Of a DNA stretch of 64,000 nt, positions 28,236 through 44,016 are shown piece by piece. The notes under the pieces are model-generated. The model saw only the letters and a list, made by a program, of their open reading frames with translations. It ran no database searches and had not been told where the DNA came from. Position 1 is the stretch's first letter; each line of letters opens with the position of its first letter. The DNA is from Clostridia bacterium. Its GTDB lineage: Bacteria; Bacillota; Clostridia; Christensenellales; Aristaeellaceae. Where the stretch lies: positions 13,704 to 77,703 of the forward strand of contig JAFWYZ010000018.1 in NCBI GenBank assembly GCA_017517465.1, written 5' to 3'. A program made the translations under genes and the position numbers.

Positions 28236-29039
28236 TCAGGGCTGGCGGCCGATATAAGCGAGGATACCGCCGTCCACATACAGCACCTGGCCGTTGACGA
28301 AGTCGCTGGCATCGGAAGCCAGGAACAGCGCCGGGCCCATCAGGTCTTCCGGGGTGCCCCAGCGTTCGGCAGGGGTCTTGGCACAGATAAACTGGTCAAA
28401 GGGATGACGGCTGCCATCGGGCTGACGTTCCCGCAGGGGGGCCGTCTGGGGCGTTTCGATATAGCCCGGGCCCAGGCCGTTGCACTGGATGTTGTACTGG
28501 CCGTATTCGGAGCAGATGTTGCGGGTGAGCATCTTCAGGCCACCCTTGGCAGCAGCATAAGCAGACACGGTTTCCCGGCCCAGCTCGCTCATCATGGAGC
28601 AGATGTTGATGATCTTGCCATGGCCCTTTTCCATCATGCCGGGAATGACGGCCTTGGCAACGATATAGGGGGCCACCAGGTCCACGTCGATGACCTTGCG
28701 GAAATCCCGGCTTTCCATTTCGATCATGGGGATGCGGCGGATAATGCCGGCATTGTTCACCAGAATATCCACAACGCCCACTTCCGCGGCGATCTTTTTC
28801 ACCATGTCCTGCACAGCATCTTCATCCGTCACGTCGCACACATAGCCGTATGCCTTGATGCCTTCGGCTTCATAGGCGCTCAGGCCCTTGTCCACCAGTT
28901 CCTGGTTGATGTCGTTGAACACCACCGTAGCGCCGGCCACGGCCAGGCCCTTGGCGATGGCAAAACCGATGCCGTAGCTGCCGCCGGTGACCAGGGCTAC
29001 CTTGCCCTGCAGGGAAAACTTGCTCATATCAAATGCCAT
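28236..29039 (-). CDS. kduD: SDR oxidoreductase, 2-dehydro-3-deoxy-D-gluconate 5-dehydrogenase / gluconate 5-dehydrogenase type
   Basis: 267 aa, with TGGSYGIGFAIA and YAAAKGGLKMLT. It lies immediately downstream of kduI. Confidence 0.8.
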   Translation of the reverse strand: MAFDMSKFSLQGKVALVTGGSYGIGFAIAKGLAVAGATVVFNDINQELVDKGLSAYEAEGIKAYGYVCDVTDEDAVQDMVKKIAAEVGVVDILVNNAGIIRRIPMIEMESRDFRKVIDVDLVAPYIVAKAVIPGMMEKGHGKIINICSMMSELGRETVSAYAAAKGGLKMLTRNICSEYGQYNIQCNGLGPGYIETPQTAPLRERQPDGSRHPFDQFICAKTPAERWGTPEDLMGPALFLASDASDFVNGQVLYVDGGILAYIGRQP

Positions 29040-29050
29040 ATTCGTTTACC

Positions 29051-29893
29051 TCACTTCATGTCGGTGGGCTGGAAGGAGTCCATATCGTCAAAGGCCTGGT
29101 TTTCGCCGCACATGGCCCAGATGAAGGTATAGTTGCTGGTGCCGCAGCCGCTGTGGATGGACCAGGAGGGAGAAATGACCGCGTCAAAATTGTTCATCAC
29201 GATGTGGCGGGTTTCCTGGGGCTGACCCATGAAATGCATGACCACCTGGTTTTCGGGAATTTCGAAATAGGTGTATACTTCCATGCGGCGTTCATGGGTG
29301 TGGCTGGGCATGGTGTTCCACACGCTGCCGGGGGCCAGCTGGGTAAGACCCATCAGCAGCTGGCAGGTTTCCAGCACGGCAGGATGGATGAACTGATTGA
29401 TGACACGCTTGTTGGACAGCTTGTCTTCACCAAGGGGCCGCTTCTGGGCTTCGGCAAAGGAAATGAAGGTGGTCTTGCAGGCCCGGTGAGCGGGAGAAGA
29501 GCACAGGTAGAACTTGGCAGGGTTTTCCTTGTCCTTGCTGCCGAACTTCACTTCCTTGGTGCCCATGGTGATGTACAGGCAGTCTTCAAACGTCATGTCA
29601 AAGCGCTGGCCGTCGGCCTCGATATAGCCGTCGCCGCCCAGGTTAAAGACACCTGCTTCACGGCGTTCCAGAAAATACTGGGTGCCGAAATTGGCCCAGA
29701 TATCGATGCCCTTGTCCACAGACACCACTTCGTCCACAGGCATAATGCCCATCACCACCATGCGGTCCACATGGGAATAGGTGGCCTGAACGGTGTCTTT
29801 CTGGTAAAGATCAGTGATCAGGAATTCCTTGCGCAGCTCTTCTGTGGTGTAGCGGCGCACATCCTGAGGATTGGCAGAATAACGAATATCCAT
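29051..29893 (-). CDS. kduI: 5-dehydro-4-deoxy-D-glucuronate isomerase
   Basis: 280 aa. It is KduI-like throughout (MDIRYSANPQDVRRYTTEELRKEFLI...) and sits in a pectin-locus context. Confidence 0.9.
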   Translation of the reverse strand: MDIRYSANPQDVRRYTTEELRKEFLITDLYQKDTVQATYSHVDRMVVMGIMPVDEVVSVDKGIDIWANFGTQYFLERREAGVFNLGGDGYIEADGQRFDMTFEDCLYITMGTKEVKFGSKDKENPAKFYLCSSPAHRACKTTFISFAEAQKRPLGEDKLSNKRVINQFIHPAVLETCQLLMGLTQLAPGSVWNTMPSHTHERRMEVYTYFEIPENQVVMHFMGQPQETRHIVMNNFDAVISPSWSIHSGCGTSNYTFIWAMCGENQAFDDMDSFQPTDMK

Positions 29894-29907: not shown

Positions 29908-30987
29908 TTACATAATAACTTTTTCGGTATCGCCGTCAAAAAGATACACATTTTCCACCGGAATGAAGAACCGGATTTCCTCATCCATTGCCGGTATCTC
30001 ATGGGGCGTTACTTTCAGAATGGATTTATCCTGAGCAATATCCACATACACATTGGCATTATCGCCCAGCATTTCCGTCAGCTCCACCATGCCCTGAAGG
30101 GCATAGGCATTCTCCTGCTCATGCAGGGTGATGGCCTCGGGACGGAAACCGAACACAATCTCTTTCCCTTCGTATTCCTTCACCTTTTCCCCCATCTTCA
30201 GGGAAAGATCCAGCTGGCTTTCGCCCACCTGAATGCAGCCGTTTTCCACCTTGCGGCGGATGAAATTCATGGGCGGCTCCCCGATGAACCCAGCCACAAA
30301 CATGTTCACGGGATTGAAATACACATCCCGGGGGGTACCGATCTGCTGCACATAGCCATCCTTCATCACCACGATCCGGTCCGCCATGGTCATGGCCTCG
30401 GTCTGGTCATGGGTCACATAGATGGTGGTGGCGCCGGTTTCCCGGTGGATCTGGGTGATCTCGGAGCGCATGGTAACACGCTGTTTGGCGTCCAGGTTGG
30501 ACAGCGGTTCGTCCATCAGAAACACGCCCACCTTGCGGATGATGGAGCGGCCCACCGCCACACGCTGGCGCTGACCGCCGGACAGGGCACGGGGCATGCG
30601 GTCCAGATAATCGGTGAGACCCAGGATCTTAGCCGTTTTCTGCACGCGCTCGTCAATCACGTCTTCGTCCACCCCCTGCAGGGACAGGCCGAAGGCCAGA
30701 TTGTCATACACCGTCATGTTGGGGTAAAGGGCATAGCTCTGGAACACCATGGCCACTTCCCTTTCCCGGGGCCCCCACTGATTGGCCACTTCCCCATTGA
30801 TGAGGAATTCACCCTTGCTGATGTCCTCCAGCCCGGCGATCATCCGCAGCGTGGTGGATTTGCCGCAGCCGGAAGGGCCAACGAACACGATAAACTCACC
30901 CTTTTCCGCTTCCAGGTTGAAATCGTGCACCGCATGGAAACCGTTGGGGTAGATTTTGTTGATGTCTTTGAGCGTCAGATATGCCAT
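29908..30987 (-). CDS. Carbohydrate ABC transporter ATP-binding protein (MalK/MsmX/UgpC type), copy 1
   Basis: Walker A GPSGCGKST, signature LSGGQRQRVA, Walker B FLMDEPLSNLD. RBS spacing favours the ATG at 30987 over 30993. Confidence 0.9.
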   Translation of the reverse strand: MAYLTLKDINKIYPNGFHAVHDFNLEAEKGEFIVFVGPSGCGKSTTLRMIAGLEDISKGEFLINGEVANQWGPREREVAMVFQSYALYPNMTVYDNLAFGLSLQGVDEDVIDERVQKTAKILGLTDYLDRMPRALSGGQRQRVAVGRSIIRKVGVFLMDEPLSNLDAKQRVTMRSEITQIHRETGATTIYVTHDQTEAMTMADRIVVMKDGYVQQIGTPRDVYFNPVNMFVAGFIGEPPMNFIRRKVENGCIQVGESQLDLSLKMGEKVKEYEGKEIVFGFRPEAITLHEQENAYALQGMVELTEMLGDNANVYVDIAQDKSILKVTPHEIPAMDEEIRFFIPVENVYLFDGDTEKVIM

Positions 30988-31105
30988 GTTCATACGCTCC
31001 CTTTCTTGAATTTAGAAACAGGCTTTTTTCCGGGGATGGACAAAACGCCTTTGATTTGATACAATAAATGAAAGCTTCATTCCGAATCATGCATGAGGTG
31101 ATCCG

Positions 31106-31900
31106 ATGAACGATATTATTTTTGCCGGCAAGCACTTTCTTACCTACAGCGTCAGCCGGCACAAGCATGACAGCTGGGAGTTGGTGTACTGCACAAGGGA
31201 CTGCGGCACCTTTGTTTTTGATGCCCTGCGCATTTCCTACGGTGTGGGGGATATTGTGGTCATTCCTCCGGGGATCCCCCACGAAAACGTGAGCGAAACC
31301 GGCTTTACCAACATCCACCTGAACATCAGCGATGCGTCTCTTCCCTTCCGGGAACCCGTTGTCATCCATGACGATGCCAACCATTCCATCCTGCACCTGT
31401 TTTCCGACAGCTATTATCATTACAACAGCGATCAGGAAAGGCGCACCCTGTTGCTTCCCGCTTATGGCAATCTGATCGCCAAATCCATTACGGCCAATCA
31501 GTCCGCCCATCCAAAGAACAAAGTGGCGGAAGAGATTGAGCGGAGCATTGTGCAAAACTATGCCAATGCCAATTACGAACTGGATGCTTTCCTGCATACC
31601 CTGCCCTACTGCTACGACCATCTGTGCAAGATTTTCCGCAAAGAGCTGGGCATGACCCCTCATAAGTACCTGACCAACCTGCGGCTGCAGGCAGCGGCGG
31701 AGCTTTTATGTTCCGCTCACAACAGCGGCAACATCACAGAGGTTTCCCTGCTGTGCGGCTTCAAAAACCCGCTGTACTTCTCCCGGCTGTTCAAAAAGAA
31801 ATACGATGTATCTCCCAAGGAATATTACCGGCGCAAGCTGGAAGCCAAACAGCTGCGGGACATGGATTCGGACAGCCAGAAGATCATTCTGGAGGATTGA
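31106..31900 (+). CDS. AraC family transcriptional regulator (cupin sensor plus HTH)
   Basis: 264 aa. The C-terminal HTH_18 region reads YCYDHLCKIFRKELGMTPHKYLTNLRLQAAAELL. Its 3' end overlaps the convergent GH105 gene by 17 nt. Confidence 0.85.
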   Translation: MNDIIFAGKHFLTYSVSRHKHDSWELVYCTRDCGTFVFDALRISYGVGDIVVIPPGIPHENVSETGFTNIHLNISDASLPFREPVVIHDDANHSILHLFSDSYYHYNSDQERRTLLLPAYGNLIAKSITANQSAHPKNKVAEEIERSIVQNYANANYELDAFLHTLPYCYDHLCKIFRKELGMTPHKYLTNLRLQAAAELLCSAHNSGNITEVSLLCGFKNPLYFSRLFKKKYDVSPKEYYRRKLEAKQLRDMDSDSQKIILED

Positions 31901-33020
31901 GCCGCATCACTTCCGTATAGCACATCACAAAGGGTGCTGCGCCCTTGGCATCGTTTTGCACCACCGGCTCGGAAATGTAATAGGCATAGGTGCCGTCCCG
32001 GCGCCGGTCCTTTTCCGGGCCCAGGCCTGCCACCAGGCAAATGCCATCCAGCACCAGGTTTTCCCCTTCAAAAGAAAGATAACGGTCCATTATGCCGTGG
32101 AAGGCTTTCAGCCCTTCTGCGGCATATTTTTGTTCCAGAATGCCAAGGCGAACCCCCTTGAGCATGGCATAGGCCATCATGCTGGAGCCGCTGGTTTCCA
32201 GGTAATTGCCATCCCGGCCCCCCTGATCCACCACCTGCCAGAACATACCCGTCTCTTCATCGGCATAGGGCAGCAGCCCGTCCATCATTTCCCGAAGCAG
32301 GGAGGATACATAGTCCTTTTCTTCCCCATCCGGAAAAATACCGGCCAGGTCCACCAGCGCCGTGGCAAACCAGCCCTGGGCCCGCAGCCAGAAGGACTTG
32401 GACAGCCCCGTTACGGGATCCGCCCAGAAGACGGTGCGGCTCTGGTCATAGCCGTGGTAATACAGCCGCTTTTCTTCGTCAAACATCTTTTCCCGCACAA
32501 TGCGCAGCTGTTTCACGATATCTGTGTAATCACCGCTTCCCATGTGCTTTTCATACAAAGCGGCAAACACCTGGGCCATATAAATGCCATCCAGCCATAC
32601 CTGGTTGGGGTAGATTTTTTTATGCCAGAAGCTGCCCTCTGCGGTTCTGGGCTGATCATCCAGCGCTTTTTTCATCACCTGAATGGCTCTGCGGTATTTT
32701 TGCTTGCCCGTCATCCGGTACAAGGGGAACAGTACCCGGCCTTCATTAATGTCATCCAGCGTCTGCTTTTCCGGCTGGAAGGTGCGGATGGCGCCATCCT
32801 CGGAAACAAAGCTGTCAATGAACCCTTCCACAAATGCCGAAAACCGTCCATCGCCGGTGATTTGTGCCATTTCCAGCAGCGCACCCAGCATGCACCCGTC
32901 AATATAGTTCCAGGTGGCAGGCAGGCCCTGCCGGGCACGCTCAATATTCCAGGCTGTTTTTTCCGGAGAGGATGTGCGGATCAGATGCAGCACGTAATCA
33001 TTGATTTTCTGATACATCAT
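31884..33020 (-). CDS. Unsaturated rhamnogalacturonyl hydrolase (GH105, YteR/YesR-like)
   Basis: 378 aa, with WNYIDGCMLGALLE, RLYYHGYD and FWLRAQGW. It has an ATGA overlap with the GH28 gene. Confidence 0.85.
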   Translation of the reverse strand: MMYQKINDYVLHLIRTSSPEKTAWNIERARQGLPATWNYIDGCMLGALLEMAQITGDGRFSAFVEGFIDSFVSEDGAIRTFQPEKQTLDDINEGRVLFPLYRMTGKQKYRRAIQVMKKALDDQPRTAEGSFWHKKIYPNQVWLDGIYMAQVFAALYEKHMGSGDYTDIVKQLRIVREKMFDEEKRLYYHGYDQSRTVFWADPVTGLSKSFWLRAQGWFATALVDLAGIFPDGEEKDYVSSLLREMMDGLLPYADEETGMFWQVVDQGGRDGNYLETSGSSMMAYAMLKGVRLGILEQKYAAEGLKAFHGIMDRYLSFEGENLVLDGICLVAGLGPEKDRRRDGTYAYYISEPVVQNDAKGAAPFVMCYTEVMRLNPPE

Positions 33021-34585
33021 TCCACCTCACGCAGGGCAAATGCCTCTACCTCGCCGCAGTTTTCCGCAACGAGGATATCCCCTTGCACCCCCTGAACCAC
33101 CACATCGTCCATGCTGACCTTTTTCACATTGTTCAGGTACAGCCCCAGCTTGCAGCGCTTGACAGCATCGTTTTGCATGGCAGGCGTAAAGGGCCGTGCA
33201 TCCTCTGCAAAAGCAATGCGCACCCGGGAGAAGGTCACCTGATCAATGGGCGCTTCAGGCAGGCCGTCAATATAGCAGGCCGCCGCTTCCGCACCGGTGC
33301 AGGTGATATCCCGGAAGGTGAAGGTGCCAAGATGCGGGGTTCTTTCATCCACGGGCAGGGGGGTGCGGCATTTCACATAATCGGAAAACCGGTCCGGGTC
33401 GCAGCAGTTATACCACATGTTCACCACAAAGGGGGTGATCACGTTTTCCATACGGATATTGTCAAACACAATGCCGGTGATATTGCAATCCTTGCCGCGG
33501 CCACGGCGGGTTTTGATCCGCAGGCCCCGGTCCGTCTGCTTGAAGAAGCAGCGGGTCACCGTCAGTTCCTTCACCCCGCAGGCCGTTTCACTGCCAAGGG
33601 TCACTGCGCCGTGGCCAAAGGCCATCAGGCAGTTGCGGATCACATGCCGGCTGGCAGGCTGGCACCGCTCCCGGCACAGTTCGATCTTGCCGGATTTGAT
33701 GGCAATACAGTCATCCCCCACGCTCAGCCGGCAGCCAATGATATTCACACCCTTGCAGGCTTCCGGGTCAATGGCATCGGTATTGGGGCTGTTCTTGGGT
33801 GCCTCCACTGCAATATCATAAAAAGAAACGTTTTCGCTGTAGAAGGGATGCATGTTCCAGGAGGCGCCGTTTTTGGCCGTGATGCCATGGACGGTCACAT
33901 CTTTACAGTTGCAAAAGAACATCAGCCGGGGCCGGGCGGTTTCGAAGTTTTTATACTCCGTCCAGAAATCGCTGCTTGGGGCATTGCCGTCCACCGTGCC
34001 TTCACCGCAGATCACAATATCCTCGCAATATTCGGCATGGATCAGGCTTTGATACATGGGCCGGGTCAGCCCTTCAAAGCAGCCCACCATGATGTTTTTG
34101 CCGCCGTTCATGTCCGGCACCAGGCCGGGCAGGATGGGATACTGCTGCCTGTCCGGGCAGCCGAGGATCACCGCACCCCTGGCCAGATCCAGGATCAGAT
34201 GGCTGCGCAGCGCCAGAGGCCGGCAAAGGTAGGTGCCCGCCGGGAAATGGATGCGCACCCCGGGAGGGGTGAAATGGATAGCCGCCTGTACGGCATCGGT
34301 ATCATCGTGGATACCGTCCCCCACCGCGCCAAAGCTGCGCACATCCACTGCGCCGTTTTCTTTTTCGGTACGAAAGGAAATTTCATGTTTTTCTTCGCCA
34401 TACACCACCGCAACCGTATATTCGGTATCCGGCTGTAGGCCAAACAGGGAAAACACATTGGTATCCGCTTCCAGCTTCTTTTCGCCGTTCAGATACACAG
34501 AATAAACCCCGGGCGCATAATAGGGGGTCAGATGATTCAGTTCAAAGCAGCAGCTCACTGCGCCTGTGTAAATCAGGTGGATCAT
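33017..34585 (-). CDS. GH28 (exo-)polygalacturonase with an N-terminal Fn3-like domain
   Basis: 522 aa. The four canonical GH28 motifs are present: NSPNTDAIDPE, GDDCIAIKSG, GHGAVTLGSE and RIKT. Confidence 0.9.
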   Translation of the reverse strand: MIHLIYTGAVSCCFELNHLTPYYAPGVYSVYLNGEKKLEADTNVFSLFGLQPDTEYTVAVVYGEEKHEISFRTEKENGAVDVRSFGAVGDGIHDDTDAVQAAIHFTPPGVRIHFPAGTYLCRPLALRSHLILDLARGAVILGCPDRQQYPILPGLVPDMNGGKNIMVGCFEGLTRPMYQSLIHAEYCEDIVICGEGTVDGNAPSSDFWTEYKNFETARPRLMFFCNCKDVTVHGITAKNGASWNMHPFYSENVSFYDIAVEAPKNSPNTDAIDPEACKGVNIIGCRLSVGDDCIAIKSGKIELCRERCQPASRHVIRNCLMAFGHGAVTLGSETACGVKELTVTRCFFKQTDRGLRIKTRRGRGKDCNITGIVFDNIRMENVITPFVVNMWYNCCDPDRFSDYVKCRTPLPVDERTPHLGTFTFRDITCTGAEAAACYIDGLPEAPIDQVTFSRVRIAFAEDARPFTPAMQNDAVKRCKLGLYLNNVKKVSMDDVVVQGVQGDILVAENCGEVEAFALREVE

Positions 34586-34597
34586 TTTCTGTCCCCC

Positions 34598-35209
34598 TTA
34601 TTTTTTCTTGGCATCTTCCACAATGCTGATGAAGGTGCGCTTCACCAGAATCAGCAGCATATCGACAGCCACAACAAAAACACCGAACAAAATGGGCTCC
34701 ACGCCCAGCACCTGCCGGGCACCGAAAACGGAAATCAGCGCCATATTGACCAGATTATAGCAAAGCACCACACCGGCCATCAGCAAAAACCCGTACAGCA
34801 GGTTCATGAAAAAGCCAATGGCACCGCGCCTGGTGACCATCATCCACCGCCGGCTGCCGCCTTCCATCTTTTCGGTAAAGCGGAGGAAATGGTTGATCAG
34901 CAGGTCCGTCACCATTCCCAGCGCCACCGCGCCGATGAACAGCATGTCCCACTGGTTTTGCACATAGGTGCCCAGCCCCATGAACACGAAAAAGCATACC
35001 GCGCCGTAAAACCAGAACTTGATCAGCAGAACTTTGGCCACTTCCGGCAGTTTCCATTTCGTCTTGCCGGAACGGTATTTATTCAGCTCCGCCTCGGAAT
35101 AATGGGGCACATTTTCCTTATCCGCGGAAACCAGGTCCTCCACCGCACCGGTATGCAGCTGATAATAGGAAGCCGTATCCCGGGGCTGTTGCTTGTTATC
35201 CTTGGCCAT
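34598..35209 (-). CDS. Uncharacterised 4-TM membrane protein (small membrane protein 4 of the ATPase-centred cluster)
   Basis: 203 aa, GAGGA RBS, hydrophilic N-terminus of about 55 aa followed by four hydrophobic segments. It is tightly packed with its neighbours. Confidence 0.7.
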   Translation of the reverse strand: MAKDNKQQPRDTASYYQLHTGAVEDLVSADKENVPHYSEAELNKYRSGKTKWKLPEVAKVLLIKFWFYGAVCFFVFMGLGTYVQNQWDMLFIGAVALGMVTDLLINHFLRFTEKMEGGSRRWMMVTRRGAIGFFMNLLYGFLLMAGVVLCYNLVNMALISVFGARQVLGVEPILFGVFVVAVDMLLILVKRTFISIVEDAKKK

Positions 35210-35211
35210 TC

Positions 35212-35778
35212 TCAGTCCTCAGACAGGATAATATCCTGCATATTGCCGTTTTCTTCCACGTCCAGGGAGGTGTTCATCTTTCTGAACAGCTTGCGCATCA
35301 CCGGCACCAGCAGCGTCAGCACCGCACCCAGGGCAATGATGATCCGGTGGGTGTTCAGCACGTCCTTGGCCTGGCCGATATAGGCAGTGCCCGCATCGAT
35401 GGTAATGGGGTTTTCCGGCCGGGTAAGGGCCCGGGTGATACCGCCCAGATAATGGGTATCGCAATAGACAATGATCCCCAGCATCACAAACATGATCACC
35501 AGCATGGGCACATTGGTCTTTTTCCGATGGGGGTAGGCGTTGATGAAGCACACAAAGGACAACAGAGAAAACAGCATGATGCAAAAGCCGCTCAGGCCCA
35601 TGCCGCTGCCCTGAATCTTGGCCGTGGTATCGGAAATATGGGTCAGATTCAAAGAGTAAAACAGGAATGCCGCCGCCAGCACCAGCATGGGGATCATCTG
35701 GGGCTTACGCTTGAGGGACACCTTCATCTTGCGGATGAATTCCTTCACACCGCCCGGTGTTTTTTTGCTTCTTGCCAT
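35212..35778 (-). CDS. Uncharacterised 4-TM membrane protein (small membrane protein 3)
   Basis: 188 aa, GAGGAGGG RBS, basic N-terminus MARSKKTPGGVKEFIRKMKVSLKRKP followed by four hydrophobic segments. Confidence 0.7.
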   Translation of the reverse strand: MARSKKTPGGVKEFIRKMKVSLKRKPQMIPMLVLAAAFLFYSLNLTHISDTTAKIQGSGMGLSGFCIMLFSLLSFVCFINAYPHRKKTNVPMLVIMFVMLGIIVYCDTHYLGGITRALTRPENPITIDAGTAYIGQAKDVLNTHRIIIALGAVLTLLVPVMRKLFRKMNTSLDVEENGNMQDIILSED

Positions 35779-35792
35779 GGATTACCCTCCTC

Positions 35793-36866
35793 TTATCTGA
35801 TGGCATTGGTGGTTTCCCGGTCGAAGAAATGCCGCTTTACAAACTGCACCTTCACCGTATCACCGGCCTTATAATCACACCAGCCCCGCAGCTTGCAGGT
35901 GATGGCAGCATCGGCGGCATGGGCATTATTCAGCCGGCCGTGCACCAGGGTGTTCATGCCCAGGTTTTCATTGGAATACACACAAACGGATATATCCCCG
36001 CCTTCGTCCACATCTTCGGGACGCACACCCAGGGTTACTTCCTTGCCTTCATAGCCCGCCAGCAGTTCCCGTTCCTTTTCCGTCAGCGCAACGGAGAAAT
36101 ACTGGTTCACTGCCTTGCCGTTTGCTATATTCACATTGAAGAAATTCATGGGCGGCAGGCCGATGAAGCTGGCCACAAACAGATTGGCAGGGGTATCATA
36201 CAACTCCAGCGGCGTGCCCACCTGCTGCACCCGGCCCATGGACATGCACACAATCCGGTCTGCCAGGGTGAGAGCCTCCGTCTGGTCATGGGTCACATAG
36301 AGCATGGTGGCATGCATGCGCTTGTGCAAAAGCAGAATTTCACGGCGGGTGGCACCGCGCAGCTTGGCATCCAGGTTGGACAGGGGTTCGTCAAAGAGGA
36401 ACACCTTGGGGTTGCGCACAATGGCACGGCCCATGGCCACGCGCTGGCGCTGACCGCCGGACAGCTGCTTGGGCTTTTTGTTCAATTGATCCGTCAGGCC
36501 CAGAATTTCTGCCGCAGCCAGCACTTTTTTATGGATCACATTGGGGTCTTCCTTACGCAGTGTCAGGGAAAATGCCATGTTTTCATACACCGTCATATGG
36601 CCGTACAAGGCGTAATTCTGGAACACCATGGCCATATCGCGATCCTTGGCCGGAGCGGTGGTGATATCCTTTCCATCCAGCAAAAGACGGCCGGCGGAGA
36701 TATCTTCCAGCCCGGCCACCATGCGCAGCGTGGTGCTCTTTCCGCAGCCGGAAGGCCCCACCAGCACAATAAATTCGCCGTCCTTCACTTCCAGATTGAA
36801 GTCAAACACAGCCTGTACTTTATTATCGTAAATCTTATCCAGATGCTGTAAGCTGATATTGGCCAT
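35793..36866 (-). CDS. Carbohydrate ABC transporter ATP-binding protein (MalK/MsmX type), copy 2
   Basis: 357 aa, with GPSGCGKST, LSGGQRQRVAMGRA and FLFDEPLSNLD. A C-terminal MalK-like regulatory domain is present. Confidence 0.9.
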   Translation of the reverse strand: MANISLQHLDKIYDNKVQAVFDFNLEVKDGEFIVLVGPSGCGKSTTLRMVAGLEDISAGRLLLDGKDITTAPAKDRDMAMVFQNYALYGHMTVYENMAFSLTLRKEDPNVIHKKVLAAAEILGLTDQLNKKPKQLSGGQRQRVAMGRAIVRNPKVFLFDEPLSNLDAKLRGATRREILLLHKRMHATMLYVTHDQTEALTLADRIVCMSMGRVQQVGTPLELYDTPANLFVASFIGLPPMNFFNVNIANGKAVNQYFSVALTEKERELLAGYEGKEVTLGVRPEDVDEGGDISVCVYSNENLGMNTLVHGRLNNAHAADAAITCKLRGWCDYKAGDTVKVQFVKRHFFDRETTNAIR

Positions 36867-36878
36867 AAGGCATCTCCT

Positions 36879-37397
36879 TTACTTGACAGCTGCCAGAGCA
36901 GCGTGATAGGCCAGCAGTTTCCGGCTGCGCACCAGGGCAATGCCCCCTGCTGCCAGGCAGCACAGCGCCGACAGCACCAGGCACACCACCGCAAAGATAA
37001 ACTGGCCGTCTTCCATCACCGGCACTTCCAGAACCTTCTTGAGCACCGGGTCACTGCGCTTGGTCAATGCGGTATGGGCCATCATAGGCAGAATGAAGAT
37101 CCGCACGATCTGGCCGATTCCCAAGGCGCCCAGCACCCAGCCGTAGCCCATCTTATAGTTCTTCACGCCTTCGGAGGACAGGAAGGACACCAGCATAAAT
37201 ACCAGGTTATACACGATGGAAATGCCGATCAGGGCACTGTAATACCAGTTGCCCACGTCGGATTCGTACACGCTGACAAAGTACAGCACGTCAAACAGAA
37301 TCGCCAGGTACACCAGCCGGGAGGAAAGGATATTTTTGGTGTAGCGCATCCGGTCCAGCCGGATCTGTTTGGGATCTTCCATGTTATTGAAGGTCAT
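36879..37397 (-). CDS. Uncharacterised 4-TM membrane protein (small membrane protein 2)
   Basis: 172 aa with four hydrophobic segments. Its start overlaps the stop of the upstream gene (ATGA). Confidence 0.7.
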   Translation of the reverse strand: MTFNNMEDPKQIRLDRMRYTKNILSSRLVYLAILFDVLYFVSVYESDVGNWYYSALIGISIVYNLVFMLVSFLSSEGVKNYKMGYGWVLGALGIGQIVRIFILPMMAHTALTKRSDPVLKKVLEVPVMEDGQFIFAVVCLVLSALCCLAAGGIALVRSRKLLAYHAALAAVK

Positions 37398-37990
37398 TTC
37401 ACCGCGCCCCTTCCTTCTTCAATCAGCCGCTTTTCAGCGTTCATCAGGTGTTTTTTCCACAGGAAATTGGCAATCAGGGCTACGCTGACCACAACCAGCA
37501 GCCCCACCACCAGCCAGTGGGCATCGAACCAGAAGGTGGAATCGATATATTCCTTTCTTCTGCGCTTGGCATATTTTTCGTAAGCTTCAAAATCGATCTG
37601 CAAAAACTGGGCTTTGAATTTTTCCACCTGCAGGTGCATCCATATGGCCATGCCGATGCCGGCCCCTGCAAACACAAACGTGCTCACCGCATTGCCGATG
37701 TAATACTTGCGACGGTTATGGGTATTGGTCATGAACAGCAGGCAGGAAAGCAGCAGCAGCACAATGGAGCTGTTCAAAAGCTGCTTGTTGAAGGGCTGGA
37801 TATGGTAATACACCTCTGCCCCGGGCACATTCACCTTGGACGTTTCCAGCTTTGCCTCTTCCGGCAGCGCATAGAACAGCCCGTCATACAAATCGGTGGA
37901 CAAGCCCAGCGAATACAAAAACATCACCCCGCACACCGCAATGGCCGCGAAGCAAAGGATTTTCTGCCAGGTCAACTGCTTTTTGTACAT
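37394..37990 (-). CDS. Uncharacterised 4-TM membrane protein (small membrane protein 1)
   Basis: Internal ATG at 37990 of track ORF 37394..38110, preceded by AGGAGG. It is 198 aa (MYKKQLTWQKILCFAAIAVCGVMFLYSL...). Confidence 0.7.
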   Translation of the reverse strand: MYKKQLTWQKILCFAAIAVCGVMFLYSLGLSTDLYDGLFYALPEEAKLETSKVNVPGAEVYYHIQPFNKQLLNSSIVLLLLSCLLFMTNTHNRRKYYIGNAVSTFVFAGAGIGMAIWMHLQVEKFKAQFLQIDFEAYEKYAKRRRKEYIDSTFWFDAHWLVVGLLVVVSVALIANFLWKKHLMNAEKRLIEEGRGAVK

Positions 37991-38127
37991 GCCATTTTCC
38001 TCCTGTATCCACACGCAGGAATGCATCCTGCTGAAAAAAATTCCCGTTCCCATCAGTCTCCGCAGCACGGGGACTGATGGGAACCCATGACGGGGCTTGC
38101 GCCCCGCCATGGATAAAAGGTTGAATC

Positions 38128-40203
38128 TTACTTGCTCAGTTCGGCATAGTAGGTCTGGAGACGATCCCAGGCTTCCTGCTTGAGGTACAGGTAGTCGGCG
38201 CCGCCCATGCCGTCGGCGATGGAGGCAACAGCTTCGTCAGCGGAGAACATGCCTTCCAGGGTGAAGCCGTTCACGATCAGGTCAACGAAAGCGTTGGCGC
38301 CGCCCTTGGCAGCGTTGAACTTTTCGGACAGAGCGGAATAGCTCTTGAGGGTTTCGTTTTCGTTCTTGGTGTTGGGCAGCACGGTGGGTACGGAGGTGTA
38401 CCATGCATTTTCGGTGATAGCCAGTTCGGGGTGCTTAATGGTGCCCAGGGCGATAGCCACGGAGATCTTGCCGGCGCCTTCCTTACCAACTTCGTGAGTG
38501 CACTGATATTCGAATGCCTGGCTCTTGGCGAAGGACAGGGTGGAGCCCAGGAACTGACGGGCATAGTTGGTGTAGTTGCCGGAAGCCTTTTCCCACAGTT
38601 CAGCGTAGGTGGCATCGGCGATCACGGGCATTTCGGTGCCGTTGAAGTTGAAGGTGACGAAAGAGCCGTCTTCATTCTGCTTGATGAATTCCTTGGGGCC
38701 GTAGCTCATCAGGATCATGCCTTCGGGGCTGTAAGCATAGTCGATCAGCTTCAGGGCGGCATTCAGCTTGTCAGCATTGCCTTCCACACCAGCCACGGAG
38801 ATGCCCCAACCGTCGGTCTTCACAGAGCGCCAGGATTCGGTGAAGCGCATGAACACGCCGTCTTCGCTGGTGCCGTCATACCACTTGGCAACGGGAACCA
38901 TCACGGCCATGTACTTTTCGCCGTCCTGCAGCTTGGTCTGGTTGTAAACGGTCTGGGTCTGGTTGTAGTCATAGTGCATGAAGCCCAGGTCATTTTCCAG
39001 GTAGGTGGCGGTGGATTCTTCGGCGGTTTCCATGAAAGCCTTGGAGATCAGGCCTTCCTGAGCCATTTCGTTCATCTTGGCCATGGCATTGTAGGCATCC
39101 AGTTCCTGACGGGCGTCACGGAGGAAGCCATCCTGGTCAACCCACAGGAAGTCCTGACGGGATTCCAGACCGCGCACACCGAACAGGGTGCCGGCAAAGC
39201 GGAACATGTCAACACGACGCTGGTTGTTGTTGTCTTCGCGGGAGAACAGGCCCTGCACGGTATCGGTGCCGTTGAGGGTCTGGGGATTGGCGACCACGCA
39301 GCGCAGCAGGGCGACCAGTTCGTCAGCATCCCAGGCAGCGTTCTGGCCAATGAACAGGTTGGAACGTTCGGTGCCATAGTAGCCGGCATAAGCTTCGTCG
39401 ATGTAAGCACGCAGCATATTCACGGCGGCAACGCCATCCAGTTCACCGGCGGCATTCATCTTTTCCACGATGTTGCCGGCGGCGTCATAGTTCTTGGTGA
39501 TCTTTTCCACGGCAGTGCCTTCCAGGTTGACAACGTCAATTTCAACGGCACCGGCGGTGGGCATGTAGGGGGTGTACACGGCAGCAGCCAGCTTGTTGGA
39601 AGCTTCGGCAGCAAATTCGCCTTCGCCGTCCAGCAGCTTCTGCACCCAGTCAGCACGCATCAGGGGCATACGTTCGATGTCGTTCACACCGTCGAAGTAG
39701 GGGGAGAAGTAGATGGCGCCGGTTTCGGTGTTACCGGTGATGGACAGGCGCACGATGGGGTTCTGGTCCAGGTAAGCCTTGAAGTTGGGCATCTGGTCCA
39801 GGTATTCGGCGATGTTCACGATGGAGCCGGCTTCGCCGTATTCGGACAGCTTGGCAGCGGTACCGCTGAGCATATCCACTTCGTCCAGACGATCCTTCCA
39901 GAAGTCAAATTCCTTGGAGGCAGAGTTGCCCTGGTACTGGTTTTCGAAAACCACGCCCAGCACGTTCTGCACTTCCACCCAGGTGGGCTTCAGGTCGCCG
40001 GCCAGGTAGGTCTTGCCGTCGGCCAGGGTGACGCCTTCGCCGGCCACGCCTGCATCAAAGAACAGGCCGGTCTTGGCATTGTTGTAGCCGGTGGCCATGC
40101 GAAGAACGGTGCCTTCGGCATAGGTCAGTTCGGCAGAGGCGGGGACAGCAAACAGGGAAATGAGCATAACGATTGCTGCCAGCAGGGAAAGAGTACGCTT
40201 CAT
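38128..40203 (-). CDS. Large extracellular solute-binding protein of a carbohydrate ABC transporter
   Basis: The ATG at 40203 follows an AGGAGG RBS. Signal peptide MKRTLSLLAAIVMLISLFAVPASA. It is 691 aa and lies downstream of the two permease genes. Confidence 0.8.
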   Translation of the reverse strand: MKRTLSLLAAIVMLISLFAVPASAELTYAEGTVLRMATGYNNAKTGLFFDAGVAGEGVTLADGKTYLAGDLKPTWVEVQNVLGVVFENQYQGNSASKEFDFWKDRLDEVDMLSGTAAKLSEYGEAGSIVNIAEYLDQMPNFKAYLDQNPIVRLSITGNTETGAIYFSPYFDGVNDIERMPLMRADWVQKLLDGEGEFAAEASNKLAAAVYTPYMPTAGAVEIDVVNLEGTAVEKITKNYDAAGNIVEKMNAAGELDGVAAVNMLRAYIDEAYAGYYGTERSNLFIGQNAAWDADELVALLRCVVANPQTLNGTDTVQGLFSREDNNNQRRVDMFRFAGTLFGVRGLESRQDFLWVDQDGFLRDARQELDAYNAMAKMNEMAQEGLISKAFMETAEESTATYLENDLGFMHYDYNQTQTVYNQTKLQDGEKYMAVMVPVAKWYDGTSEDGVFMRFTESWRSVKTDGWGISVAGVEGNADKLNAALKLIDYAYSPEGMILMSYGPKEFIKQNEDGSFVTFNFNGTEMPVIADATYAELWEKASGNYTNYARQFLGSTLSFAKSQAFEYQCTHEVGKEGAGKISVAIALGTIKHPELAITENAWYTSVPTVLPNTKNENETLKSYSALSEKFNAAKGGANAFVDLIVNGFTLEGMFSADEAVASIADGMGGADYLYLKQEAWDRLQTYYAELSK

Positions 40204-40298
40204 ATTGGTTTTCCTCCTTTTTTTGTCACCGGTCTTTTTGCGCCGGTGCATAAGCCTTTTTTATGTTCAGCCGGGTGCACTCCGGCAAAACATCTGTG

Positions 40299-41189
40299 TT
40301 ATTCCTTCACACCGCCGGCATTGACGCCCTTGGCGAAGTATTTCTGAATGAAGGGATAGATGATGAGGATGGGCACGATGGAGCATACGATCAGGGCATA
40401 GATGACGGAGTCGGAAGAGAATACTTCGTTCCAGCCGGCCATCTGTTCAGGGTCCGTATATTCTTCCAGACGAAGACGGATGAACACCTGCAGGGGATGC
40501 TCGTTGGAGTTGGAGATCATCTGCCTTGCCCAGAAATAGCCGTTCCAGCGGGACAGGGCAAAGAACAAGGTAACGGTGGCGATGGTGGATTTGCACATGG
40601 GAATGTACACTTTTCTCAGCACCTGGAATTCGGTGGCGCCGTCCACAATAGCCGCTTCTTCGATTTCACTGGGCACGCCTTCAAAGGCATTGCGCAAAAG
40701 AATGATGTTCATGGCCGCCATACCCATGGCGATGACCACCAGCCATTTATCGTCAGTGATGCCCATGGCATTGAACACATCCTTGGTGGCCAGGTAATTC
40801 AGATACTGGGGAACCAGACCCGCAGAGAACAGCATGGTGAACACCAGGAAGAAGTTGAATGCCCGGCGGAAAAGCAGCCGCTTCTTGGACAGGGCATAGG
40901 CGCCCAGAATGGCCACAAACAGGGCCCATACAGTACCGTAGAAGGTAAGGAACAATGTGTTGGAATAGGAATTCCAGAACATATTGTCGTTAAACATCCG
41001 GGCAAACGCATCAAACTGGATATCCTTGGGGAACAGCACCACTTCGCAATAGTCCACCGCATGGGCCCCGGAAATGGAGGCGGACACGGCATACAGGAAG
41101 GGGTACAGGCAGGCCAGGGCAAACAGGCACAGGAAGGTGTAGCTGATCACCTTAAAGATGCGTTCGGAAATTTCAAGCTTTCTTTTCAT
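40299..41189 (-). CDS. Carbohydrate ABC transporter permease (LplC/YtcP-like)
   Basis: Internal ATG at 41189 with a GAGGAGGGG RBS. It is 296 aa with six TM segments. The EAA-loop region reads NAFEGVPSEIEEAAIVDGA. Confidence 0.85.
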   Translation of the reverse strand: MKRKLEISERIFKVISYTFLCLFALACLYPFLYAVSASISGAHAVDYCEVVLFPKDIQFDAFARMFNDNMFWNSYSNTLFLTFYGTVWALFVAILGAYALSKKRLLFRRAFNFFLVFTMLFSAGLVPQYLNYLATKDVFNAMGITDDKWLVVIAMGMAAMNIILLRNAFEGVPSEIEEAAIVDGATEFQVLRKVYIPMCKSTIATVTLFFALSRWNGYFWARQMISNSNEHPLQVFIRLRLEEYTDPEQMAGWNEVFSSDSVIYALIVCSIVPILIIYPFIQKYFAKGVNAGGVKE

Positions 41190-41202
41190 CTTGCTCCCCT
41201 CC

Positions 41203-42249
41203 TCAGTACAGCGAAGTATCGGAGGCCTTGCGGGCAATGGTGTTGGCACTGATCACCAGCAGCATGCTGATCACATTGTTCATCATTTCAGCAGCGGATG
41301 CCAGGCCCTTCTGGCCGCCCACAATGCCCTTGCGCTGGGCAAAGGTGGATACCACGTCGGCAGTAACGTAGGTGTTGGTGTTATACAGAAGCAGTACCTT
41401 TTCGTAGCCGATGTTCAAAAGGGCGCCGATACGGGTGATGAGCATGATGACCACCGTGGACAAAATGCCCGGCAGCACCACATAGCGCATCTGGCTCATC
41501 TTGCCGGCACCGTCAATCTGGGCCGCTTCATAGCTGGTGGGAGAAATGGCGATGATGGCGGCAAAGTACACAATGCTGTCATAGCCTGCGCCTTCCCAGA
41601 TACCGGAGATCTGATAGATCAGACGGAAGAAATCCGGGTTATTGAGCAGGCCCTTGTAGGCCACGTCCTGGCTGATGATCCCCAGCGCTTCCAATGCCTG
41701 GCTGACAATACCGTAACCGCTGGTCAGTGCCCCCTGCTTCACCAGCATGGTGACCAGGGAGGTCATCACAACCGTGGACATGAACTTGGGCAGGTAAGTG
41801 AGCACCTGGCAGGTGGAGCGAACGATATTGGAGCGGATTTCATTGAAGAACAGGGCCAGAATGATGGGCATGGGGAAACCAAAACACAGCCCATAGAAGC
41901 TGAGCAGGAAGGTATTGCGCAGTGCGCGCCAGAATTCCACCGCATCACTGCCCGCCAGCAGGCTCTTGAAATAAGAGAAGCCGGAGAAATACTGTTCCGC
42001 CACCGGTTTCACTTCGTCCGGCACCTTAAAGCAGCCCAGCAGTTCATACATGGGCAGATAGCGCCAGAACAAAAATACCAGCAGCATGGGCACCAGCATC
42101 ACATACAGCCGCCAGTCCTTGAGAATGGTCAAGCACACATGTTTCCAATAATGCTTTTCCACATCGTCGCGAACGATCTGTTCCGGATTTTCGGTATATA
42201 TGCCACGGGCTTCATCATAGATGAGAAAATCCGCTGCTTTCGTCGCCAT
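41203..42249 (-). CDS. Carbohydrate ABC transporter permease (LplB/YteP-like)
   Basis: 348 aa. The EAA-loop region reads ISPTSYEAAQIDGAGKMSQMRYVVLP. Confidence 0.85.
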   Translation of the reverse strand: MATKAADFLIYDEARGIYTENPEQIVRDDVEKHYWKHVCLTILKDWRLYVMLVPMLLVFLFWRYLPMYELLGCFKVPDEVKPVAEQYFSGFSYFKSLLAGSDAVEFWRALRNTFLLSFYGLCFGFPMPIILALFFNEIRSNIVRSTCQVLTYLPKFMSTVVMTSLVTMLVKQGALTSGYGIVSQALEALGIISQDVAYKGLLNNPDFFRLIYQISGIWEGAGYDSIVYFAAIIAISPTSYEAAQIDGAGKMSQMRYVVLPGILSTVVIMLITRIGALLNIGYEKVLLLYNTNTYVTADVVSTFAQRKGIVGGQKGLASAAEMMNNVISMLLVISANTIARKASDTSLY

Positions 42250-42291: not shown

Positions 42292-42867
42292 TCAGTATCC
42301 TTGTTTGTTTTCTTCCTGGATCCGTTTCAAATAATGCCGCTGCTCTTCCAGCATACCGTCCAGCCTCTTGGCAATCCACACCAGCAGCACACTAAACAGC
42401 GTGGAAAGAATATCCGTTGTAAAGAAACCGGCGCACACCTGCAGGCTATTGCCCAGTACCAGTGCCACCGCAGCCCGGCCCAGCTGCATCAGCAGCGCCG
42501 CGCACAGCCCGTAGCCCAGCAGCCACAGCACATTTCCGTGCAGGCTTTCCCAGCCCTTCTTTTTCAGCACCGGCACCATCACAAGCCCCAGCATGCTGCC
42601 CGCCGCGTAAATGATCCACTGGACAGGTGCCGCATGGGACACCAGACAAAATGCGATGCTGCCTGCCGCCATGGGCACGGCCGCCCACCAGCCCCAGCGC
42701 ACCATCACAATGGCGGCAACGGCACAGGAAAGGGACACCGTATAGGGCTCCCCGGGAAACCAGACCGTGGCCCCCAGGGTGATCAGCACCTCACTGATGA
42801 CCAAGATCAGCGAGAAAAAGAATAAATCCATGGTGCGGTATTGCCTGAAAGTGATCTGTTTTTGCAC
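42292..42867 (-). CDS. Uncharacterised polytopic membrane protein heading the transporter operon
   Basis: 191 aa, GTG start with a GGAGGA RBS, five to six hydrophobic segments. I cannot assign a family. Confidence 0.6.
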   Translation of the reverse strand: MQKQITFRQYRTMDLFFFSLILVISEVLITLGATVWFPGEPYTVSLSCAVAAIVMVRWGWWAAVPMAAGSIAFCLVSHAAPVQWIIYAAGSMLGLVMVPVLKKKGWESLHGNVLWLLGYGLCAALLMQLGRAAVALVLGNSLQVCAGFFTTDILSTLFSVLLVWIAKRLDGMLEEQRHYLKRIQEENKQGY

Positions 42868-43131: not shown

Positions 43132-44016
43132 ATGTCCAATCTTCTTTTCCTCACCCCGGAACATGACCTGCAGCAGCAATTTGATGCTGCTGCGCCCGGC
43201 ACCCACATCCGTCTGGCCTTGGGCGAATACCGCCAGAAGGTGCTCATCCGCACCCCCGGCCTCATCATCGATGGGGAGGATATGCACAAAACCGTCATCG
43301 TATGGGATGACTATGCCAACAAGCTGGATGAAAATGGGGTGGAATACAACACATTCCGCACATGGACGGTGGCCGTCTGCGCCCCCCACATCACCATGCG
43401 GAACCTGACTGTCAGAAACGATGCCCTGCAGCCCGAAACCAAGGGCCAGGAAGTGGCCCTTTCTGTGCTGGGGGATGATTTCAAAATGGTGCATTGCCGC
43501 CTGTCATCCACCCAGGATACCCTCTTTGCCGGTCCCCTGCCTGCGGATCTGATTGAACGGTATCAGGGCTTTCACCGGGCAGAGCTGCTCTCCCCCACCC
43601 CTTCCCGTCAGGTGTATGAAGAGTGCCTGATCGAGGGATCGGTGGATTTCATCTTCGGCTGCGCAGATGCGCTGTTTGACCGTTGTGAGATCCGCAATGT
43701 GTATGACGTGCGGCAGGTGGGGTATGTGGCTGCCCCTGCCCATGCATTGGAGCAAGAGGAAGGCTTTCTTTTCCGGTATTGCCGCTTCACCAGTGATGCG
43801 CGGGTCAGGCGCCATTCCATTTATCTGGCCCGGCCATGGCGGGACTGGGGGCTGTGCCGGTTTGTCAATTGCACACTGGAAGACCATATCCACCCCCTGG
43901 GCTACGACAAATGGAGCGGCACCGAAAGAAACAAAACCGCCCGTTTTCATGAATATCCGCCTGTTTCCGGCCGGGTGGACTGGGTAAAACAGGTGGAAGA
44001 AAAGTATCTTCCCTGA
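43132..44016 (+). CDS. Pectinesterase (carbohydrate esterase family 8)
   Basis: Internal ATG at 43132 after an AAAGGAGG RBS. Motifs TQDTLF, GSVDFIFG and YLARPW are present. No signal peptide is seen. Confidence 0.85.
   Translation: MSNLLFLTPEHDLQQQFDAAAPGTHIRLALGEYRQKVLIRTPGLIIDGEDMHKTVIVWDDYANKLDENGVEYNTFRTWTVAVCAPHITMRNLTVRNDALQPETKGQEVALSVLGDDFKMVHCRLSSTQDTLFAGPLPADLIERYQGFHRAELLSPTPSRQVYEECLIEGSVDFIFGCADALFDRCEIRNVYDVRQVGYVAAPAHALEQEEGFLFRYCRFTSDARVRRHSIYLARPWRDWGLCRFVNCTLEDHIHPLGYDKWSGTERNKTARFHEYPPVSGRVDWVKQVEEKYLP

Follow-up and report, generated by a model that had tools for sequence, protein, structure and literature searches.

We describe here a set of small membrane proteins whose genes surround an ATP-binding cassette (ABC) ATPase gene in a pectin locus of a gut or rumen Clostridia bacterium (Aristaeellaceae; GenBank assembly GCA_017517465.1, contig JAFWYZ010000018.1, positions 13,704 to 77,703 of the forward strand). 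This whole stretch of 64,000 nucleotides (nt) is called the window below. The genes form a co-directional string on the minus strand, U-pB-pC-S-A-B-N-C-D, in which pB and pC encode permeases, S a putative binding protein and N an ATPase of the MsmX type, and A, B, C, D and U encode small polytopic membrane proteins (Table 1). The interleaving of five orphan families of membrane proteins with a dedicated ATPase of the MsmX type, in the operon of a putative pectin-fragment importer, is real and strongly conserved, and the arrangement is apparently undescribed.

Gene organization of the importer locus

A preliminary description of the window had proposed A, B, N, C and D as five co-directional genes with near-zero spacing and a strong ribosome-binding site for each of the small genes, and it had placed a second MalK-type ATPase gene beside kduI. 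All five reading frames and the second ATPase gene (n) were recovered, and a GGAGG-like ribosome-binding site was found 6-10 nt upstream of each of A, B, N, C and D. The 4-nt overlap of A and B was likewise confirmed, but the largest gap is 14 nt (N-C) and not 13 nt as had been given; the other junctions are 12 nt (B-N), 2 nt (C-D) and 12 nt (D-GH28, the glycoside hydrolase family 28 gene). Two points had to be corrected. First, the canonical permease set had been considered to lack an ATPase of its own, which was a misreading, as the gene string that contains the set continues to N, 1.3 kb downstream. Second, a fifth co-conserved membrane protein, U, had been overlooked.

Table 1 Features of the locus in the window, and of the paralogous heparinase-type blocks in three other loci (last three rows, positions in the locus named)
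Feature	Position	Strand	Description
pectinesterase	43132-44016	plus, divergent from U	Pfam Pectinesterase; without signal peptide
U	42292-42867	minus	191-amino-acid (aa) polytopic membrane protein, operon head, no known family
pB	41203-42249	minus	LplB/YteP-like type I ABC permease; BPD_transp_1 match
pC	40299-41249	minus	LplC/YtcP-like type I ABC permease; BPD_transp_1 match
S	38128-40251	minus	giant divergent putative extracellular binding protein, ~700 aa
hairpin pair	38046-38112	minus	between S and A; U tract at 38034-38040
A	37394-37990	minus	198-aa protein with four transmembrane segments (4-TM)
B	36879-37397	minus	172-aa 4-TM protein
N	35793-36866	minus	357-aa MsmX/MalK-type ABC ATPase with C-terminal OB/TOBE regulatory domain
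C	35212-35778	minus	188-aa 4-TM protein
D	34598-35209	minus	203-aa 4-TM protein
GH28 polygalacturonase	33017-34585	minus	Glyco_hydro_28 match; without signal peptide
GH105/GH88-type unsaturated uronyl hydrolase	31884-33020	minus	Glyco_hydro_88 match, E 9e-82
AraC-family regulator	31106-31900	plus	HTH_18 and AraC_binding matches
n	29908-30993	minus	second MsmX-type ATPase; first gene of the n-kduI-kduD operon
kduI	29051-29893	minus	Pfam KduI
kduD-like short-chain dehydrogenase	28236-29039	minus	Pfam adh_short_C2
heparinase-type block, L101	1746-8842		single ATPase
heparinase-type block, L102	6067-13757		single ATPase
heparinase-type block, L103	5458-13322		single ATPase

The two permeases are canonical. 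Each has a BPD_transp_1 domain with an EAA loop (EAAQIDGAGKMSQMRYVVLP in pB and EAAIVDGATEFQVLRKVYIP in pC), as is characteristic of a type I importer, and the loop is found in 67/67 members of the pB family and in 58 of the 62 members of the pC family. In the locus, EAA loops are confined to these two proteins. The orthologues of pC are 289-296 aa long, and because orthologue lengths and ribosome-binding sites favour internal starts for both pC and S, the true start of pC is probably an ATG near 41189 instead of the GTG at 41249 of the longest open reading frame, and that of S is probably the ATG near 40203 (MKRTLSLL) instead of the ATG at 40251.

A signal peptide is present in S, and its gene stands in the operon where that of a binding protein would be expected; S has no Pfam match to any solute-binding protein (SBP). 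Its residues 323-519 are weakly matched in the PDB by family-1 SBPs (5GX8, 5GUB and 5XS8; E 1e-5 for 5GX8), and from these comparisons S is predicted to be a very divergent binding-protein family in its own right. In the clade of the window, the signal peptide of S (40110-40251) ends in VPASA/ELTYAEG, with neither a lipobox Cys nor a linker; in many other lineages with the block, S carries an L-x-G/A-C lipobox followed by a long linker rich in Pro, Thr and Ser. We also considered whether A-D could be the tether for a binding protein devoid of a lipid anchor, and this was rejected as a general explanation, since many block-bearing lineages keep the lipobox. The gap between S and A, which is the largest of the block in most loci, contains in the window a pair of hairpins and a U tract with a folding dG of -72 kcal/mol (z -7.2 against shuffled sequences). 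These hairpins are probably a partial terminator or an RNA-stabilising element, by which the level of S would be set above that of the downstream A-D and N.

N matches the ABC_tran, OB_MalK and UgpC/MalK NCBIfam models, and it has the Walker A/B and LSGGQ motifs and the C-terminal OB/TOBE domain of a MalK/MsmX-type ATPase. In the PDB, N is matched best by MsmX of Bacillus subtilis (6YIR, E 3e-107) and next by AlgS, from the alginate importer (E 6e-97). The helical subdomain, in which the coupling groove lies, is ~60% identical between N and MsmX.

Conservation of the gene block and a paralogous version

The distribution of the block was examined in 301 genomes of the window's order and by a scan for D relatives with one genome per species. 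A was present in 10 of the 301 order genomes, from 8 genera, and the genome of the window carries a single copy each of A, B, C, D and U. D relatives were found in 486 species genomes, and the 80 that were listed are all metagenome-assembled genomes from gut, rumen or faeces; no D relative was found in ~376 genomes that represent the class outside this order, or in another 400 from the phylum. Gene order was compared in 88 loci, namely 8 distant ones, fetched as 20-kb loci, and 80 closer ones. All 8 distant loci contain U-pB-pC-S-A-B-N-C-D intact and then pectin enzymes (GH28 absent in one), and the gene order is kept even though their small proteins are only 27-40% identical to those of the window. 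None of the 80 closer loci shows a break in the block up to where its contig ends. U heads the block in every locus long enough to show that end, and GH28 comes next after D in most loci.

The block [U]-pB-pC-S-A-B-N-C-D, with each family recognisable, was thus present in the window and in the 88 other loci, and the arrangement to which the preliminary description had drawn attention, in which two small membrane proteins stand on either side of the ATPase, is strictly conserved. Because of this strict conservation, a functional tie of A-D to the ATPase and the importer is supported. The supposition that the architecture is undescribed also held, in that our literature searches found no published description of it. 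Of the outcomes that the preliminary description had named as refuting, neither a match of the four proteins to well-known families outside transport nor a lack of conserved linkage to an ATPase was observed.

The cassette also occurs in a second version. The S family is present in 12 of the 301 order genomes; 9 of these also carry A, and the other 3 carry a paralogous block, pB-pC-S-A'-B'-N'-C'-D', with U detected in 2 of the 3 loci. A'-D' are recognisable by profile only (E 1e-5 to 1e-24), and A'-B'-N'-C'-D' occupy the same position in the paralogous importer as A-B-N-C-D. This block adjoins DUF4962 and heparinase II/III-like lyases, a short-chain dehydrogenase and an IclR regulator, and it is probably the locus for another uronate-containing glycan; we call it heparinase-type, and the block of the window pectin-type. 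The 16-20 kb fetched for this block contain no ATPase gene besides N'. When the heparinase-type D' was used in a word-based search, only 14 relatives were obtained. Within the 301 order genomes, the S family was found only where the cassette (A-D or A'-D') is also present, and the paralogous importer has its own A'-D' in the same position; therefore, the cassette is the mark of one subfamily among the LplABC-like importers, and uronate-type substrates are predicted for both versions found. In addition, orphan paralogues of the giant binding protein with 27-29% identity (L104, 9190-11214; L105, 9123-11141) sit in two genomes that also carry the heparinase-type block, and no permease or cassette genes were detected in their fetched flanks.

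Properties of the small membrane proteins

Hydropathy showed four hydrophobic segments in each of A, B, C and D, as had been noted in the preliminary description, and the positive-inside rule gave an N-in/C-in topology, with outer loops of 4-38 aa. AlphaFold2 models built with family alignments showed four long helices in C (pLDDT 86.6) and in D (pLDDT 85.7). In A, two extracellular loops of ~38 aa are conserved together with an invariant cytoplasmic RRxYY motif, and in B, the conserved parts are a cytoplasmic N-terminal DRMRYTK and an SEGVK loop. The C family is large (402 clusters at 50% identity), and among 120 divergent representatives its conservation peaks in the cytoplasmic parts, that is, in an N-terminal amphipathic helix (kE..RK..V.LKR.P), the TM2-TM3 loop (P.RKK) and the C-terminal tail (KInTS..vE). 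The least conserved part of C is the extracellular TM3-TM4 loop, in which some members have insertions of up to ~650 residues. The N-terminal domain of D is cytoplasmic and ~55 aa long, and polar residues are conserved within the membrane helices of the protein; in the pectin type, D102, N106, N136, Y151, N155 and E171 are near-invariant. Once the heparinase-type D' is added, the residues still kept are only W66, G69, G78, G98, Y151, N155 and P172. The conservation patterns of A, C and D are compatible with partners on both membrane faces, and the identity of the partner is not given by them.

The long members of the C family owe their length to loop insertions or N-terminal extensions. Insertions of 150-650 residues between TM3 and TM4 are present in P0134, P0136, P0137, P0139, P0141, P0146, P0147, P0167, P0173 and P0176; in some members, these consist of Ala/Glu-rich coiled coil or of repeats, with units of roughly 60-70 residues in P0167. 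P0124, P0126, P0130 and P0202 have three or four additional membrane helices at the N-terminus. No fusion of C to D, to N or another nucleotide-binding domain (NBD), or to a permease was found among the 150 best C-family representatives.

In pairwise comparisons, the ratio of nonsynonymous to synonymous substitution rates (dN/dS) was 0.12-0.27 for A-D and U (0.18-0.27 for U), which indicates purifying selection. The permeases (0.06-0.10) and ATPases (0.08-0.12) gave lower values, and the small proteins are more relaxed than these, similar to S and the enzymes. Because of the invariant motifs, these dN/dS values of 0.12-0.27 and the fixed gene order in 88 other loci, the arrangement of A-D is not due to chance.

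Searches of sequence and structure databases did not place the small proteins in any described family, in agreement with the preliminary description. For A, B, C, D and U of the window, nothing above noise was obtained in Pfam (to E<=1) or NCBIfam, and PDB sequence profile searches with all five families gave nothing. With Foldseek against the PDB, neither the D model (best E 0.95) nor the C model (best E 0.04, generic four-helix bundles only) had a significant match. The five families are unrelated to each other by hhalign, apart from a weak similarity of B and C (probability 21%). In a collection of 5.8 billion proteins, 2785 homologues of D and 1213 of U were found, all named 'hypothetical'. 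Three D homologues (P0085, P0094 and P0102) are labelled PF27763.1, a label that could not be resolved as it is absent from the Pfam copy used; it may be a very recent Pfam entry that covers part of the D family.

Several known kinds of membrane protein were considered for A-D and U. The lack of an EAA loop in A-D, which had been noticed earlier, extends to 0/335 family members, and with no BPD_transp_1 match and no PDB profile match, A-D were rejected as type I ABC membrane domains. They were also rejected as 4-TM partners of the MacB/FtsX type, with no FtsX or MacB match (Pfam on A-D of the window, PDB profiles of the four families, and Foldseek on the C and D models) and outer loops of just 4-38 aa. 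DUF624 proteins (YesL, YesV and YteU) are small polytopic membrane proteins of unknown function within sugar-ABC and pectin loci of Bacillus. The preliminary description had held that the small proteins do not resemble them, and this was correct, since A, B, C, D and U have no match to the DUF624 model and 51 U relatives have no Pfam match at E<=1, DUF624 included; membership in this family was therefore rejected. Moreover, DUF624 proteins do not form a constant group of five, nor are their genes interspersed with an ATPase gene, and no sequence relationship between them and A-D or U was found.

Proposed role of the small membrane proteins and comparison with known systems

The second ATPase of the locus bears on how the small proteins are read. 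N and n are 50% identical, and each falls in its own well-supported clade, with ~78% identity within a clade. Their Walker A/B, signature and H motifs are intact, and the clades differ at 43 fixed positions, many of them in the helical subdomain. The gene n lies downstream of D in 59/59 loci with >=6 kb of flank, at a position that varies relative to GH28 and GH105, and in distant pectin-type genomes it is found upstream of U or elsewhere in the genome. This constant link of an MsmX-type n to the pectin-type block is new here. In the window, n adjoins kduI-kduD, without permease genes of its own nearby. It is not the only shared ATPase of the genome, because two further MsmX paralogues are present (four MsmX-like in total), together with about ten CUT1 permease pairs. 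One explanation would be that N and n make a heterodimeric NBD pair on pB-pC in the pectin type, with A-D as factors for assembly or specificity, by which the dedicated pair would stay on its own permeases in genomes with several interchangeable MsmX paralogues. Such a role would fit the intact motifs, similar evolutionary rates and parallel internal tree topologies of the two ATPases, the restriction of n to genomes with the pectin-type block, and the number of MsmX-like paralogues and permease pairs in this genome. However, n belongs to a different operon, the heparinase-type cassette has A'-D' yet one NBD only, there is no rate covariation of N with n, and CUT1 importers are known with homodimeric NBDs, so that we regard a heterodimer as improbable.

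The reading that we prefer, tentatively and with somewhat less than even confidence, is that A-D and U are additional membrane partners of one importer. They are read as extra partners and not as a second transporter because N resembles MsmX and EAA loops are found only in the permeases. First, the order of the genes is unbroken in 88 loci, with tight or overlapping junctions, and the cassette recurs in the paralogous importer. Second, the S family occurs only with the cassette, and N' is the lone ATPase gene in the fetched heparinase-type region. Third, C is conserved on the cytoplasmic side, and its outer loop tolerates insertions of hundreds of residues. From this pattern, we infer that A-D and U may be physically associated with the importer, and any specific role given to them here is conditional in the same way. 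U-pB-pC-S-A-B-N-C-D would then be one uptake system for oligogalacturonides, a substrate that is suggested by the adjoining GH28, GH105, KduI, KduD and pectinesterase genes. In this system, pB and pC would be the two canonical type I permeases and S an unusually large binding protein, and N would be the system's own MsmX-type ATPase, docking on the EAA loops of pB and pC. By analogy, N would most simply be taken to energise pB-pC, in the way that MsmX energises YtcP-YteP in B. subtilis, where YtcQP-YteP as well as YesOPQ act as MsmX-dependent galacturonide importers and provide a functional precedent (PMC5730181). A, B, C, D and U would be extra subunits or tightly associated modulators, produced together with N; the conserved extracellular loops of A would face the side where the binding protein docks, and the conserved cytoplasmic segments of B, C and D would face the side of N. 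A possible role of these proteins is to adapt the importer to long polyanionic uronate chains, for example in assembly, gating or charge handling.

Several observations weigh against these proteins being partners of the importer. In a rate covariation analysis on a fixed 35-taxon tree, the correlations were near zero for all family pairs, and no coupling of A-D to N, pB or pC was seen. Relative to the concatenate, A-D and U evolve at 1.3-1.7x, the permeases at 0.45-0.58x and N and n at 0.9x, which means that the small proteins evolve about 2.5-3x faster than the permeases. The other LplBC-like systems of the window genome have no such small proteins, and to our knowledge the TogMNAB, AlgM1M2SS and YtcQP-YteP importers for acidic oligosaccharides work without them. 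N always has small genes on both sides and is never a neighbour of the permeases, and the S-A hairpins and the linked n are also compatible with a separate A-B-N-C-D unit.

The last two of these observations agree with a self-contained second machine, in which an N dimer is held and used by the four 4-TM proteins, U is possibly a substrate-capture subunit, and pB-pC-S draws its energy from n or from an MsmX paralogue that it borrows. The widest gap in the block, with its strong hairpins, parts S from A; n accompanies the pectin-type block and co-diversifies with it; many of the clade-fixed differences between N and n fall in the helical subdomain; the conserved cytoplasmic helices and loops of B, C and D could serve as coupling elements; and the two further MsmX paralogues could be borrowed. 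However, A-D lack an EAA motif and resemble none of the ABC membrane domains, N is an NBD of the canonical MsmX type, and in no case was the cassette seen apart from pB-pC-S. None of the 150 best representatives of the C family showed a fusion to an NBD, and in the heparinase type there is no second ATPase gene in the 16-20 kb fetched and no n orthologue in the genome tested. We therefore consider a second machine rather unlikely. Its boldest form, in which the four 4-TM proteins, perhaps with U, would be the membrane domain of a new ABC machine that is driven by an MsmX/MalK-type ATPase without EAA loops and works in tandem with the canonical importer (energised by n or a borrowed MsmX) on long polyanionic uronate chains, is quite improbable in our view. 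The preliminary description had offered the small proteins either as accessory or regulatory partners of the ATPase or as a second, non-canonical membrane module energised by it. The first proposal agrees with the functional tie to the ATPase and importer that the conserved order supports, but no positive evidence was found for the second, and the ordinary MsmX-type NBD of N, the EAA loops confined to the permeases and the constant company of pB-pC-S speak against it.

A-D and U could also be functionally linked to the importer and not physically attached to it, for example as a cation or proton pathway, in by-product export or in the sensing of pectin fragments in the membrane. The near-invariant polar residues in the helices of the pectin-type D (D102, N106, N136, Y151, N155 and E171) would suit such a function, as would the predicted uronate-containing substrates of both block types found and the absence of rate covariation with the importer core. 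However, a gene order interleaved with the ATPase and translational coupling are unusual for mere co-regulation, several of the D polar residues are lost in the heparinase-type D', and no similarity of A-D to any channel or sensor family was found (Pfam; Foldseek of the C and D models). Such a looser link is unlikely, and we retain the reading of A-D and U as partners of one importer for the comparisons below.

Compared with known systems, the block shares most with the galacturonide importers of B. subtilis. Like YtcQP-YteP and YesOPQ, it combines an LplB/LplC-type permease pair with EAA loops, a putative extracellular binding protein and an MsmX-type ATPase, and it lies in a pectin locus whose GH105 and GH28 enzymes act in the cytoplasm (PMC5730181). 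Unlike the present block, the B. subtilis systems lack A-D and U, and their operons include no ATPase gene dedicated to them, whereas the block here has a putative binding protein of ~700 aa that is not recognised by Pfam and two dedicated MsmX-type genes, N and n, linked to it. The block is also similar to AlgM1M2SS-AlgQ1/Q2 of Sphingomonas sp. A1 (PDB 4TQU), a type I importer for long acidic oligo- and polysaccharides in which the ATPase AlgS is structurally close to N. We take the 4TQU complex to consist of two permeases, two AlgS and the binding protein, with no extra membrane subunits.

Energy-coupling factor (ECF) transporters likewise group several small membrane proteins with ATPase genes, and, as in the pectin type, two distinct ATPases are present. 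Unlike them, N and n are of the MalK/MsmX type and not of the CbiO/EcfA type, A-D have no CbiQ/EcfT match, and U has no S-component match by sequence (Pfam and PDB profile searches). The genome holds a separate ECF module elsewhere, with EcfT (contig C175) and at least three S components, and by ATPase type and sequence matches an ECF transporter was rejected for the block. Small membrane proteins that bind and tune transporters, such as KdpF, AcrZ, MgtS and others, provide a further precedent (PMC10710835). In contrast to these single one-TM proteins of usually <50 aa, the proteins described here are five proteins with 4-6 TM segments and 170-200 aa, present as a fixed set.

The textbook composition of type I ABC sugar importers is a binding protein, two permeases and two ATPases. 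If A-D and U are subunits, this major transporter class would be richer in composition than has been assumed, and in the guts of herbivores and humans, acidic fragments of plant fibre would be taken up by a route that depends on unstudied parts. If A-D instead form their own machine with the embedded ATPase, a new ABC architecture would be at hand. The co-inheritance of these genes in a fixed, interleaved order spans at least 486 species of gut and rumen Clostridia, and a diverged version is part of a second importer tied to uronate lyases. Either way, five large orphan families gain a testable functional context.

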